From Myxococcales bacterium (lineage in GTDB: Bacteria > Myxococcota_A > Polyangia > Haliangiales > Haliangiaceae), in NCBI GenBank assembly GCA_016708565.1, contig JADJFN010000001.1:540863-604862 (forward strand): 64,000 bases of DNA, read 5' to 3'. This document shows, piece after piece, positions 33,319 through 36,793 of the stretch (position 1 is its first letter; every line of letters begins with the position of its first letter). The notes under the pieces are model-generated. The model worked only from the letters and a program-made list of their open reading frames with translations. It had not been told where the DNA came from and ran no database searches. The position numbers and the translations under genes are program-made.

Positions 33319-34191
33319 CTACCAGGCCAGCGTCCGCCGCGCGCTGGTCGCGGTCGAGCCGGCGGCGGCGGCGGCCTCGGCGGCCGGCGAGCGGCGTGGC
33401 GCGCGCGAGCGATCCTCGAGCGCGTCGACCGGCAGCCGCTGCAGCCACGGACCGTCCTGCTCGGCGGCCTCGACCGCGTGGGCGGCGAAGGTGTGGCTCA
33501 TCAGCGACGCGACGAACAGCCCGGCCCGGGTGGGCGCCAGCCCGAGGTCGAGCACCAGCGCGGCGATCGCGATGACGATGTTGGGCTCGACGCCGTGGGC
33601 GGCGCGCAGCGCGGTGACCACCTGCTCCATCAGCCGCCAGCCCGGCCGGCGACGCGCCGGGTGGTGGGCCAGCAGGCGGTGCATGCCGAGCAGGCGCTCG
33701 TCCTCGGCGCGGAACGGCACGCCGAAGCCGCCGATGCGGCCGCGCTCGGCGGTGTGGGCGGCCACCGCGGCGGCCACCGCCGCGTCGGAAGGATCGTCGC
33801 CGACGCGGGCGCGGATCCACGCCAGCGACGCGGCGGCGCCGGCGGTGACGCCGGGGCCGAGCTGCTGGCTGCCGGTGCCGAGCTGCGCGCCGAAGTAGCC
33901 GGCGTAGGCGTCGCCGTACGACGCCAGCACCCGAGCCAGCTTGAGCGGCCACACCCGCGCGTCGGGCGAGGTCAGGCACAGCGAGATCACCCGCAGCACC
34001 TCGCGATCGCCGTCGGTCAGGTCGCACAGCCCGAAGGCGCGGGCGGTGAGATCGAGCTGCGAGGTGACGGTGGCGGCGAGCGCGCCGAACACCGCCGCGC
34101 CGCAGTAGCGGTTGTCGTCGGTGCCGATGTGGCCGGCGCGCTGCTGCGGGCGCGCGGCGGCGGGCGGGGCGGGGCGAGGGGAGGCGGTCAC
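33319..34191 (-). CDS. Citrate-synthase-like protein, C-terminal-half equivalent (GFGxxxR motif), separate ORF
   Basis: GFGVPFRAEDERL resembles GFGHRVYKxxDPR of citrate synthase and citryl-CoA lyase. GTG start overlaps the upstream stop (GTGA). Confidence 0.5.
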   Translation of the reverse strand: MTASPRPAPPAAARPQQRAGHIGTDDNRYCGAAVFGALAATVTSQLDLTARAFGLCDLTDGDREVLRVISLCLTSPDARVWPLKLARVLASYGDAYAGYFGAQLGTGSQQLGPGVTAGAAASLAWIRARVGDDPSDAAVAAAVAAHTAERGRIGGFGVPFRAEDERLLGMHRLLAHHPARRRPGWRLMEQVVTALRAAHGVEPNIVIAIAALVLDLGLAPTRAGLFVASLMSHTFAAHAVEAAEQDGPWLQRLPVDALEDRSRAPRRSPAAEAAAAAGSTATSARRTLAW

Positions 34192-34991
34192 GGCGCGGCT
34201 CCTTCGGCGTCGGCGTACTGGAAGTCGGGCAGGCGGGCGGGGTAGCCGCGGACGTCGCCGATGCGGACGGCGGCGGCCTCGGCCATGACCGCGGGGAGCC
34301 GCGCCCAGACCAGCACGGTCTCGAGCACCACCGGGCCGCGCAGGCCGAGGCGGTGGAGGATCGCGTGGCCGCACGCCACGCGGTCGAGCGGCGCGTCGGG
34401 CAGGCCGCGATCGGCGCCGAACCAGCTCCGCAGCTGGCCGTCGAGCCAGCGCCGCGCGGCCTGGGCCTCGAGCGACTCGCGCGCCCCGGTCGGCACGGTC
34501 GCGCACGCCGGCACCGCGCCGGTGGGCGCGTCGAGCCAGGCCCACCAGGCCGCCATCGCCTCGCGCTCGGCGCGCGCCTGCTCGCCGAGCCCGACCGCGG
34601 TGATCGCGATGGTCGCGGCCGGCGGCGCGCCGGCGATCCGGGCCAGCCCGGCGGCGTGGGCGGGGGCCTCGCCGACCGAGACCGGCGCCAGCAGCACCAT
34701 CGCCACGTCGAACGCCGCCCGCTCTGCGGCGGTCGGCAGCTCGCCGCGCAGCACCAGCCAGGTCACGTCGATCGCGCCGTAGAACCGCGCGAGGTCGCCG
34801 GCGACCGCGTACCCGTGGAGCCGCGGCTCGGGGCCGGGGCTGACCACGTGGGCCGCCAGCCGCGCGGGCCACGCCTCGCGATCGAACGGGCCGACGTAGG
34901 TGGTCGTGGCCGGCGCGGGCGCGTCGTCGGCGGTGGCAGTGGCGGTGGCGGTCAGCGCCATCGGCGGCAGCTCGAAGGGATCGACGATCAT
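34188..34991 (-). CDS. Citrate-synthase-like protein, N-terminal-half equivalent, separate ORF
   Basis: LHGYAVAGDLARFYGAIDVTWLVLRGELPTAAERAAFD resembles the citrate synthase N-terminal LxYRGYxIxxLaxxxxFEEVAyLLLxGELPT. ATG overlaps the TPP-enzyme stop (ATGA). Confidence 0.5.
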   Translation of the reverse strand: MIVDPFELPPMALTATATATADDAPAPATTTYVGPFDREAWPARLAAHVVSPGPEPRLHGYAVAGDLARFYGAIDVTWLVLRGELPTAAERAAFDVAMVLLAPVSVGEAPAHAAGLARIAGAPPAATIAITAVGLGEQARAEREAMAAWWAWLDAPTGAVPACATVPTGARESLEAQAARRWLDGQLRSWFGADRGLPDAPLDRVACGHAILHRLGLRGPVVLETVLVWARLPAVMAEAAAVRIGDVRGYPARLPDFQYADAEGAAP

Positions 34992-36793
34992 CGGGAGGCT
35001 CCTTGGGACGACAGGCTCTTGATGCGCAGCGCGAGGATCGGCGACGGCACGCTGGGATCGACGCGCACGTCGATGACGACCGGGCCCGGCGTCGCCAGCG
35101 CGGTGGCCAGCGCCGCGGCCAGCTCGGCCTCGGTGTCGACGGTGAGGCCGACCGCGCCCTGGCTGCGCGCGAACGCGGCAAAGTCGGTGCGCGGCAGCTG
35201 GGTCTCGACCGGCGTCATGCCCAGCGCGCCCATGCCGTGCTGGTTCAGGCCGAGCTGCGCGTCGTTGAGCACCAGCCACACCACGTCGGCGCGGTACGCG
35301 ACCGCGGTGTTGATCTCGTTGTTCATCAGCATCGCGCCGTCGCCGACCACCGCCACCGCGCGCCGGCCGCTGGCCAGCGCCGCGCCGACGCCGCCGGTGG
35401 TGAAGTGGCCCATCGAGCCCCACGCCGCGCTGGTGCGGTAGCGATCGGGCGCGTCGAAGCGCAGCGCGTAGTTGCACCACGTGAACGAGTTGCCGGCCTC
35501 GCTCATGACGATCGCGTCGGTGGCGTCGACGACCTGGGTCTGCACGGCCTGCATCACGTACGCCGGCCGCACGTCGCCGGCCCGGGGCGCCAGCGGGGCG
35601 GGGCGGCCCAGGCTCGGCACCGCCATCGCGCGCCGCGTGGCGTACCAGCCGGTGGCGCGGGCCCGGGCGTCGAGCGCGGCCAGGAACATGCGGCAGTCGG
35701 CGACCACGCCGAGGCCGGGCACGCCCGGGAACGCCGCCGCGAACGCGCGCGGGTCGACGTCGACGTGGATCCACCCGGCGGCCGGCGTGGCGGTGGGCGC
35801 GAGGAACGAGGTCACCTCGCCCAAGCGAGTGCCCAGGACCAGCAACGTATCGGGCCGGGCGGTGGCAAACATCGCCATCACCGAGGCGTGGCCGCCGGCG
35901 CCGGAGACGCCGACGAACTGCGGGTGCGACTCGGGGAACACGCCCTTGGCCCGCGGCGACGCGATCACCGGCAGCCGCGCGGCCTCGGCGAACGCGCGCA
36001 GCTCGGCGGCGGCGTGGCGGCAGCCGTGGCCGATCCAGATCGCCGCGCGGCCGGTGGCCAGGCGGTCGAGGGTCGCGTCGAGCGCCTCGAGGGGCGGCGC
36101 CGGCGCCGCCACCGACCACGCGGCGGCCCGCGGCGCGGCGGCGGGATCGCACAGCTCGGCCTGCAGCGACCACGGCAGCGCCAGGTGCGCGACGCAGCCG
36201 CCAGGGCTGGCCCAGCCCAGCGCGAGCTGCTGCAAGAAGTGCCCGAGCTCGGCGATCGACTCGGGCTGCGCCGCGAGGTGGAACAGCGGGCCGGCGGTGG
36301 TGAGGCCGGCGGGCGCGCTGGCCGGGCCGGTCTCCTGCACCGCGCCGCGCCCGAGCTGGGCCCGCGACGTGGCGCCCGAGATCAGCAGCAGCTTGGCGCC
36401 GTCGGCCCGCGCCGCCATCGCGCCGTTGAGGGCGTTCCACAGGCCGGGGCCGGTGGTGGTGACGACCAGCGTCGGGCGGCCGGTGGCGAAGTGGGCCTCG
36501 ACGGCGGCGAACGCGGCGCCGGCCTCGTGGCGGGTGTGGAACAGCCGGATCGGGCTCTTGCGCAGGCCGTCGGCGAACGCCGCGATGCCGCCGCCCAGCA
36601 CGCCGAAGCCGTGGCGCACGCCGAGCGCGGCCAGCTCGCGGGCGATCAGCGCCGAGGCGGTGAACGCGGTGGCGTCGGACCAGCGGGCCTTGCCGCCCCA
36701 CCCGACGACGTCGCCCTCGGACGGCGCGGGGGCGGCGGGCAGCGGGACGGTCGCGGCGGGCTGGTACGGATGGGCGGGGGTGTCCTTGGACAT
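34988..36793 (-). CDS. Thiamine-pyrophosphate-dependent enzyme (acetolactate-synthase / benzoylformate-decarboxylase superfamily)
   Basis: Three-domain TPP architecture. C-terminal TPP-binding motif GDGAMLMNNEINTAV. Confidence 0.75.
   Translation of the reverse strand: MSKDTPAHPYQPAATVPLPAAPAPSEGDVVGWGGKARWSDATAFTASALIARELAALGVRHGFGVLGGGIAAFADGLRKSPIRLFHTRHEAGAAFAAVEAHFATGRPTLVVTTTGPGLWNALNGAMAARADGAKLLLISGATSRAQLGRGAVQETGPASAPAGLTTAGPLFHLAAQPESIAELGHFLQQLALGWASPGGCVAHLALPWSLQAELCDPAAAPRAAAWSVAAPAPPLEALDATLDRLATGRAAIWIGHGCRHAAAELRAFAEAARLPVIASPRAKGVFPESHPQFVGVSGAGGHASVMAMFATARPDTLLVLGTRLGEVTSFLAPTATPAAGWIHVDVDPRAFAAAFPGVPGLGVVADCRMFLAALDARARATGWYATRRAMAVPSLGRPAPLAPRAGDVRPAYVMQAVQTQVVDATDAIVMSEAGNSFTWCNYALRFDAPDRYRTSAAWGSMGHFTTGGVGAALASGRRAVAVVGDGAMLMNNEINTAVAYRADVVWLVLNDAQLGLNQHGMGALGMTPVETQLPRTDFAAFARSQGAVGLTVDTEAELAAALATALATPGPVVIDVRVDPSVPSPILALRIKSLSSQGASR

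Follow-up and report, generated by a model that had tools for sequence, protein, structure and literature searches.

The window analysed here, a stretch of 64,000 nt from a Myxococcales bacterium (contig JADJFN010000001.1), carries an operon of three genes on its minus strand (36793–33319), referred to below as T, B and C in their order of transcription. T encodes a thiamine pyrophosphate (TPP)-dependent enzyme, and the products of B and C have the fold shared by citrate synthase (CS) and citryl-CoA lyase (CCL). An earlier note, made from the sequence alone, had placed here a 601-aa TPP enzyme and a CS-like protein split into two open reading frames (ORFs), all joined by 4-nt overlaps. The overlaps, ATGA between T and B and GTGA between B and C, were read again from the sequence as that note had described them, and the peptides quoted in it were found as well (VTWLVLRGELPT within B and GFGVPFRAEDERL within C). 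The starts of B and C are preceded by the same Shine–Dalgarno sequence at the same distance (Table 1). If translation began at an alternative GTG, at 36805, T would have 605 aa.

In the frames of T, B and C the GC content at third codon positions (GC3) is 0.97–0.98, and the neighbouring gene hflX is alike in this respect; in a genome of ∼75% GC this composition indicates that the three frames are real. Promoter and terminator scans of the GC-rich region gave no match.

Table 1. Genes, junctions and neighbouring features of the T–B–C operon in the window and in related loci (coordinates preceded by an L number belong to loci of other genomes)
Feature	Coordinates	Strand	Description
Gene T	36793–34988	−	ATG start; 601 aa; TPP-dependent enzyme, ScyA-like carboligase type
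Gene B	34991–34188	−	ATG start; 267 aa; complete but strongly diverged CCL fold; poorly conserved partner paralog
Gene C	34191–33319	−	GTG start; 290 aa; complete CCL fold; GFGVPFRxxDER in place of GxGHR...DPR
T/B junction	34988–35004	−	AAGGAG at 35004–34999; 7-nt spacer; ATGA at 34991–34988 (B start over T stop)
B/C junction	34188–34204	−	AAGGAG at 34204–34199; 7-nt spacer; GTGA at 34191–34188 (C start over B stop)
hflX	38545–36869	−	Directly upstream of T; 75-nt gap
Vault-protein-like gene	30717–33311	+	Convergent with C; 846–864-aa protein
HD-domain gene	38459–39745	+	Divergent from hflX
Long ORF	39715–43092	−	Receiver-like N-terminus
Rival frame of long ORF	39759–42098		Ala/Glu-rich coiled-coil-like tail
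Sensor histidine kinase (example)	L047 1669–3450	+	N-terminal sensor domain with a weak Arabinose_bd match only; beside the TPP gene; 34 loci within L025–L083
∼190-aa protein	L029 6936–7505		Just 3′ of C or between T and B; also in L032, L041–L045, L057, L060, L061, L063, L071
Transporter	L029 ∼3900–5160	+	MFS/Sugar_tr type; directly 5′ of B–C

The TPP_enzyme_N, TPP_enzyme_M and TPP_enzyme_C domains were all detected in T above the Pfam cut-offs, which bears out the enzyme class assigned to the first gene in the earlier note. The cofactor motif, GDG-x23-ND at residue 484, is intact, and the activating Glu is present in RHE at residue 89–90. T thus has the three domains, the GDG...N(N/D) motif and the Glu that characterize TPP enzymes of the pyruvate oxidase and acetohydroxyacid synthase (AHAS) type. 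In NCBIfam, ScyA-type models are far ahead of all others: the ScyA-related model NF035927 gave 586 bits (cut-off 1000) and the ScyA model NF035923 gave 547 bits (cut-off 1020), while the next model gave 212 bits. The nearest sequences in PDB are BbmA (8x3x, E = 7e-58) and CsmA (8x3z). Literature searches for the function of BbmA and CsmA gave no paper, and a review of tertiary-alcohol-forming thiamine diphosphate enzymes omits both.

Pfam assigned no family to B or C, and neither matched PF00285 at E ≤ 1. Their best NCBIfam scores for CCL (PRK06224) were 17 bits for B and 28.5 bits for C, with cut-offs of 193–323. In these weak matches residues 66–141 of B correspond to profile positions 40–116 of 275, and residues 104–244 of C to positions 95–237 of 260; because of these match positions each protein is collinear with a whole CCL of ∼260 aa. 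A PDB search with the single C sequence returned noise only.

AlphaFold2 models were built from alignments of homologues, with predicted local distance difference test (pLDDT) values of 87.5 for C and 83.4 for B. A Foldseek search matched the C model to the CCL of Hydrogenobacter (6hxp) over 260 columns on a 256-residue chain, with a template-modelling (TM) score of 0.79 and E = 1e-6. The B model matched the same set of CCL structures over ∼240 columns (E = 1.5e-5), and CCL is the best structural match for B as well as for C. Both models have the all-helical fold, which spans the whole CCL module of ∼260 aa. The profile of the C family also matched citrate synthase 2p2w in its C-terminal part (E = 1.4e-5). 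Segments that are still CS-like in sequence are the N-terminal GY..DL...L.L.GELPT in B and the G-x-G...D-x-R region in C.

The two proteins are also related to each other. With alignments of 77 and 79 sequences taken from the genome loci, hhalign matched B33–267 to C3–268 over 224 columns (probability 87%, E = 3.8e-6). The full-length match was obtained only with these alignments; an earlier run with 34–35 sequences gave 60 N-terminal columns at 17% probability, and BLASTP of the single B and C sequences gave no match (E > 6). In some genomes, such as that of locus L076, the C profile matches the B ORF in both its N- and C-terminal parts. The homologues gathered, 78 for C and 53 for B, are all 230–350 aa in length. 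Neither this set of 131 nor the best 150 of 788 representatives of C included a B–C fusion of ∼530 aa. On these results, B and C are two complete paralogous modules of the CCL fold and not halves of one; the pair arose by an old duplication. The earlier note had taken B for the N-terminal and C for the C-terminal half of a CS/CCL fold. Its assignment to the fold stands for both proteins, by profile and by structure, but the division into halves does not, since each protein covers the entire fold. Of the two marks of a split gene, coverage of non-overlapping parts of the fold and fused orthologs, neither was found for B and C.

Conserved residues set B and C apart from the enzymes of this fold. 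In C, GFGVPFRAEDER aligns with the signature GxGH(R)...D(P)R, and PNIV aligns with PNVD of citrate synthases and of the CCL module of Chlorobium ATP-citrate lyase. Position 158 of C, the site of the signature His, is Val in the window; in 79 species it is occupied by Val (61), Thr (11), Ile (5), Ala (1) or Leu (1) and never by His. Position 206, the site of the Asp of the ‘N-V-D’ motif, is likewise Val in the window and is Ala, Gly, Val or Ser in the family, with Asp in one of the 79 species. This Asp is the catalytic D375 of pig CS and D1026 of human ATP-citrate lyase (ACLY). Where C aligns with the signature His, B reads G-A-V-P; its aligned Asp site is variable, as is the rest of its C-terminal half. 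Thus, neither C nor B has the signature His or, in general, the N-V-D Asp by which a catalytically competent CS or CCL is recognized.

A further motif of citrate synthase, ‘ADHE.N’, has a role in oxaloacetate binding. Alignment together with the known CS motifs places ‘ADPRIWPLK’ at this segment in C. In total, 13 polar or aromatic residues of C are invariant in the 79 species (D77, R79, W81, K84, R87, R161, D164, E165, R166, N204, D215, E241 and R266), the Arg of the D-x-R motif among them. This conserved polar set is distributed over DPRIWPLK..R, GFGVPFR..DER, N204, D215, E241 and R266. In B the conserved polar or aromatic residues are H112, E238, Y250 and Y259; R118 and R231 are mostly kept, and otherwise little beyond structural residues is conserved. 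As far as the aligned sequences tell, the pocket of C is remodelled rather than decayed, and its 13 invariant residues argue for a ligand pocket under selection.

To place the operon among related genomes we used one genome per species, 80 loci in all, with our own scan of these loci by hidden Markov models, and a profile search for C among 1.84 billion representatives. Relatives of C numbered 788 in the profile search, and 255 of these had E < 1e-30. Nearly all of the best 150 are 215–340 aa long and aligned over their full length; two longer ones have extra C-terminal signalling domains. Cluster-member look-ups for remote representatives of the C family returned ‘hypothetical protein’ only. 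Labels of 75 of the 80 loci are Myxococcota or deltaproteobacterial metagenome-assembled genomes or isolates, and carriers include Polyangiaceae, Nannocystaceae, Kofleriaceae, Byssovorax, Archangium, Sandaracinaceae and Bradymonadales.

B lies directly 5′ of C in 79 of the 80 loci; the remaining locus is truncated where its contig ends. Directly 5′ of B, a TPP gene is found in at least 62 loci; in about nine it is close by but placed or oriented differently, and in four there is none within 6 kb. Between B and C a 4-nt NTGA overlap recurs in 60 of 79 loci, and between T and B a 4-nt overlap does so in 46 of ∼70, a recurrence beyond chance. Three loci with no TPP gene within 6 kb (L029, L032 and L041) indicate that B–C can exist apart from T. 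Genes flanking the trio vary from locus to locus, and hflX adjoins it in the three closest loci only, plus once on the opposite strand; because of both observations we regard T–B–C as an autonomous module, and the hflX neighbourhood was rejected as a functional link. The position ‘downstream of hflX’ given in the earlier note is correct for the window, where hflX is directly upstream of T, but this closeness is limited to the nearest relatives. The related loci do not share a gene for an acyl-CoA ligase or synthetase beside the trio.

The same note had proposed a heteromeric CS-fold enzyme working with a TPP carboligase or decarboxylase in an acyl-CoA/2-oxoacid pathway, and context mining for the same trio. 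The trio was recovered in about 80 species and the linkage of the CS-fold pair to a TPP carboligase is kept across related genomes; the acyl-CoA part of the proposal is doubtful, as C lacks the canonical His and Asp throughout the family.

When the 80 loci were grouped by similarity to the T of the window, 20 were close, 13 intermediate and 42 distant, and five had no detected TPP gene. A representative T of the intermediate group scored 718 bits against the ScyA-related model. A representative of the distant group is acetolactate-synthase-like (371 bits against TIGR00118, below the cut-off), and this type, with 42 of the 80 loci, is the commonest partner of B–C. The identity of B–C to the window declines in step with the groups of T, which points to a long-standing association. 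B–C therefore accompanies two TPP lineages, one ScyA-like and one acetolactate-synthase-like.

Most of the acetolactate-synthase-type loci have an additional gene. In 34 of these 42, T is adjoined by a histidine kinase (HisKA and HATPase_c) with a conserved family-specific sensor domain, and the kinase stays with T even in inverted T units. The clade of the window has neither this kinase nor the ∼190-aa protein described next. That protein has no Pfam family and is encoded in 12 loci just 3′ of C or between T and B; its carriers are about nine of the 13 intermediate ScyA-type loci and the three loci without a TPP gene. Fusions of C-family proteins to a C-terminal receiver domain were seen in P0003 (81% identical to the C of the window) and P0180, and a third protein, P0264, has a weak HATPase_c match at its C-terminus; all three are metagenomic and possible assembly chimeras. 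In locus L029, and in this genome only, a transporter of the major facilitator superfamily (MFS) replaces the TPP gene directly 5′ of B–C. Genes for a ClpV/ClpB-like ATPase and FHA-domain proteins, resembling a type VI secretion system (T6SS) as read from the sequences, lie beside the module in L048, L053, L067, L074, L078, L079 and L083. These T6SS-like neighbours are probably plain synteny within one subclade, with no functional link.

Several known systems resemble parts of the module. B and C share with CCL the ∼260-aa all-helical fold and the length; B keeps the N-terminal motif given above and C the G-x-G...D-x-R skeleton. Unlike B and C, which are two diverged paralogs, CCL is the product of a single gene and forms homo-oligomers; the His of G-x-G-H and the catalytic Asp (the ACLY D1026 equivalent) are replaced in the B–C family, and the genomic partner of B–C is a TPP enzyme and not citryl-CoA synthetase. 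Citrate synthase and 2-methylcitrate synthase (PF00285) are distant homologues of B and C by profile and structure (TM ∼0.55), but CS has ∼370–430 aa with extra helices, and B and C have neither a PF00285 match nor its catalytic residues. Operons of AHAS (ilvBN and ilvIH) also consist of a TPP enzyme gene followed by translationally coupled small genes, and the acetolactate-synthase-like T of 42 of the 80 loci adds to the likeness. The regulatory subunits of AHAS are, however, ACT-domain proteins; here two CCL-fold proteins follow, and the T of the window is ScyA-like and not AHAS-like.

There is also an analogy in chemistry with ScyA–ScyC of scytonemin biosynthesis and CybE–CybF of furanolide biosynthesis, in which a carboligase is followed by dedicated partner proteins; the T of the window is nearest to the ScyA models. 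ScyA couples two arylpyruvates to a labile beta-keto acid, which ScyC has to capture ahead of its spontaneous decarboxylation to an alpha-hydroxyketone (PMC4870267). CybE is paired by like logic with CybF, a homologue of 3-oxoacyl-ACP synthase similar to ketoacyl synthase III (KAS-III) (PMC8777810). The partners differ in that B and C have the CCL fold and CybF is KAS-III-like, and the window has no nearby dehydrogenase of the scyB type or acyl-CoA ligase. The scytonemin pathway itself was considered and set aside, as the neighbours are hflX, a gene similar to that of major vault protein (MVP) and an HD-GYP regulator, with no scyB or scyC, and related loci lack such a conserved neighbour too. 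The furanolide (CybE/CybF) pathway of marine myxobacteria was rejected because the genes after T encode CCL-fold proteins and not ketoacyl-synthase-like ones.

We propose that T–B–C is a coupled operon in which a B–C hetero-oligomer captures and processes the product of T. T would join two 2-oxo acids to a labile 2-alkyl-2-hydroxy-3-oxo acid. Such a product would be a tertiary alpha-hydroxy acid, chemically near the citrate and citryl moieties bound by the CS fold. Acetolactate synthases (AHAS) make the analogous 2-hydroxy-2-methyl-3-oxo acid. Since both TPP lineages make 2-hydroxy-3-oxo acids, the common denominator of the partners of B–C would be a class of product rather than one substrate. 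Assembly into dimers or tetramers is obligatory for CS and CCL, whose active sites lie at subunit interfaces. As two paralogs are encoded together here, a hetero-oligomer is suggested rather than a homo-oligomer; coupled translation would supply B and C in a 1:1 ratio for its assembly. In this complex C would provide a remodelled carboxylate-binding pocket, with B as a degenerate partner. The complex would capture the product of T and convert it by decarboxylation, rearrangement or cyclization, without Claisen or CoA chemistry, and its role would be equivalent to that of ScyC for ScyA and of CybF for CybE.

We are highly confident that the genes are structured as described, that B and C have the folds assigned to them and are paralogs, that catalytic residues have been lost and that T is linked with B–C. 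For the proposal as a whole the chances are about even, and the capture function of B–C, taken by itself, is put forward tentatively, as somewhat short of that. Several observations weigh against the proposal. Neither B nor C reaches a cut-off in Pfam or NCBIfam, and T stays below those of both the ScyA and the ScyA-related model. The window holds no aminotransferase, dehydrogenase or other tailoring gene of a natural-product cluster. Loss of the His and the Asp fits a non-catalytic binding or regulatory role equally well, and the hetero-oligomer, the substrate, the reaction and any catalytic activity are what we infer for B–C.

The main rival to the capture complex is that B and C are non-catalytic regulatory or scaffolding subunits of a stoichiometric T–B–C complex, comparable with the AHAS small subunits encoded just 3′ of ilvB or ilvI, or with the tetrameric core of CCL or citrate synthase homology (CSH) modules that organizes ATP-citrate lyase. 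The translational coupling of all three genes, the disappearance of the canonical His and Asp from the family, the very few conserved polar residues of B and the frequency of the acetolactate-synthase-like T all agree with such subunits. So does an argument about ACLY, whose citrate-synthase-homology module was proposed by Wei et al. (2023) to act allosterically (PMC10115795). However, the 13 invariant residues of C, with the citrate-binding-type Arg of D-x-R among them, exceed what a scaffold needs, and B–C pairs occur without an adjacent TPP gene in the three loci named above. Moreover, known AHAS regulatory subunits do not have the CS fold. On balance we consider the subunit explanation rather unlikely, although it is the strongest of the alternatives.

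A broader interpretation starts from the kinase. TPP carboligases yield alpha-hydroxyketones after decarboxylation (PMC4870267). The sensor kinase adjoining T–B–C in 34 of the 42 acetolactate-synthase-type relatives, together with the C-receiver fusions, recalls loci of the CqsA/CqsS type, which serve alpha-hydroxyketone signalling and in which the synthase gene adjoins that of its sensor kinase. CqsA is, by contrast, dependent on pyridoxal phosphate, and neither the window nor its ScyA-type clade has a kinase beside the trio. T–B–C could be a Myxococcota-specific synthase of a small-molecule signal, in which a TPP carboligase and a heteromeric pseudo-CCL make an acyloin/alpha-hydroxyketone-type or related compound by new CS-fold chemistry; the kinase would sense the product in the acetolactate-synthase-type version, and the window would hold a kinase-less ScyA-type variant. 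We mention this as a speculative extension that is unlikely to hold in full.

Less probable by a clear step is that B–C has true acyl-CoA-dependent Claisen or retro-Claisen activity (for example, as an alkylcitrate synthase or acyl-CoA lyase) and uses CoA thioesters alongside the 2-oxo acid chemistry of T. The fold is typical of CoA-dependent enzymes, the D-x-R Arg and the overall helical core are retained, and some family members have weak precomputed Pfam matches to Citrate_synt. Yet the signature His is replaced in all 79 species, the Asp position holds Ala, Gly, Val or Ser, the oxaloacetate-binding segment has become ‘ADPRIWPLK’, and the trio lacks a conserved acyl-CoA ligase or synthetase neighbour; such an enzyme is hard to reconcile with these changes. 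That B and C are complementing halves of one split CS/CCL is refuted by the fold searches and has very little probability left: plain sequence searches do match B to the N-terminal and C to the C-terminal part only, but each protein has the length of CCL and is modelled as its entire fold, the two align end to end, and no fused ortholog was seen among the homologues examined. Finally, a sequencing or assembly frameshift at 34188–34191, or spurious ORFs such as the very long ones present in all six frames of this region, can practically be dismissed in view of the GC3 of the called frames, an identical protein in public records (six contigs) and the recurrence of the two-gene arrangement and overlap across 79 independent genomes (60 with the identical overlap type), so that the gene boundary is genuine, as the earlier note had argued.

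Other genes of the window were also inspected. The gene convergent with C encodes a protein with domains of the eukaryote-type major vault protein (MVP_shoulder, 74.7 bits; Vault_3, 43.6 bits), and a homologue recurs in one related locus only. The gene divergent from hflX has HD_5/HD domains of the HD-GYP type after a receiver-like N-terminal region, and the same neighbourhood of hflX and HD-domain gene is present in L001. In the region of the long ORF and its rival frame the local GC content reaches 0.82, and the AT skew is strongly negative.

A literature search found no description of a TPP enzyme paired with genes for CS-like or CCL-like proteins, and Pfam and NCBIfam contain no curated family for B and C. 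The components have known folds; the T–B–C pairing is new as a variant and does not make a new category. To our knowledge, the CS/CCL fold is known almost solely from the Claisen-type CoA chemistry of central metabolism. Here it occurs as duplicated, paired proteins that lack the canonical catalytic residues and are nevertheless strongly conserved in about 80 species. With three small genes the question is experimentally tractable. A non-catalytic B–C would provide a clear case, in bacteria, of a CS-fold pseudoenzyme serving as a partner subunit, with a bearing on the debate whether ACLY's citrate-synthase-homology module is catalytic or allosteric. If B–C is catalytic, the CS fold would gain a new reaction, and labile 2-hydroxy-3-oxo acids would be handled in a novel manner. 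Since a dedicated sensor kinase is often linked to the module, a signalling molecule so far unrecognized in myxobacteria is a possibility.

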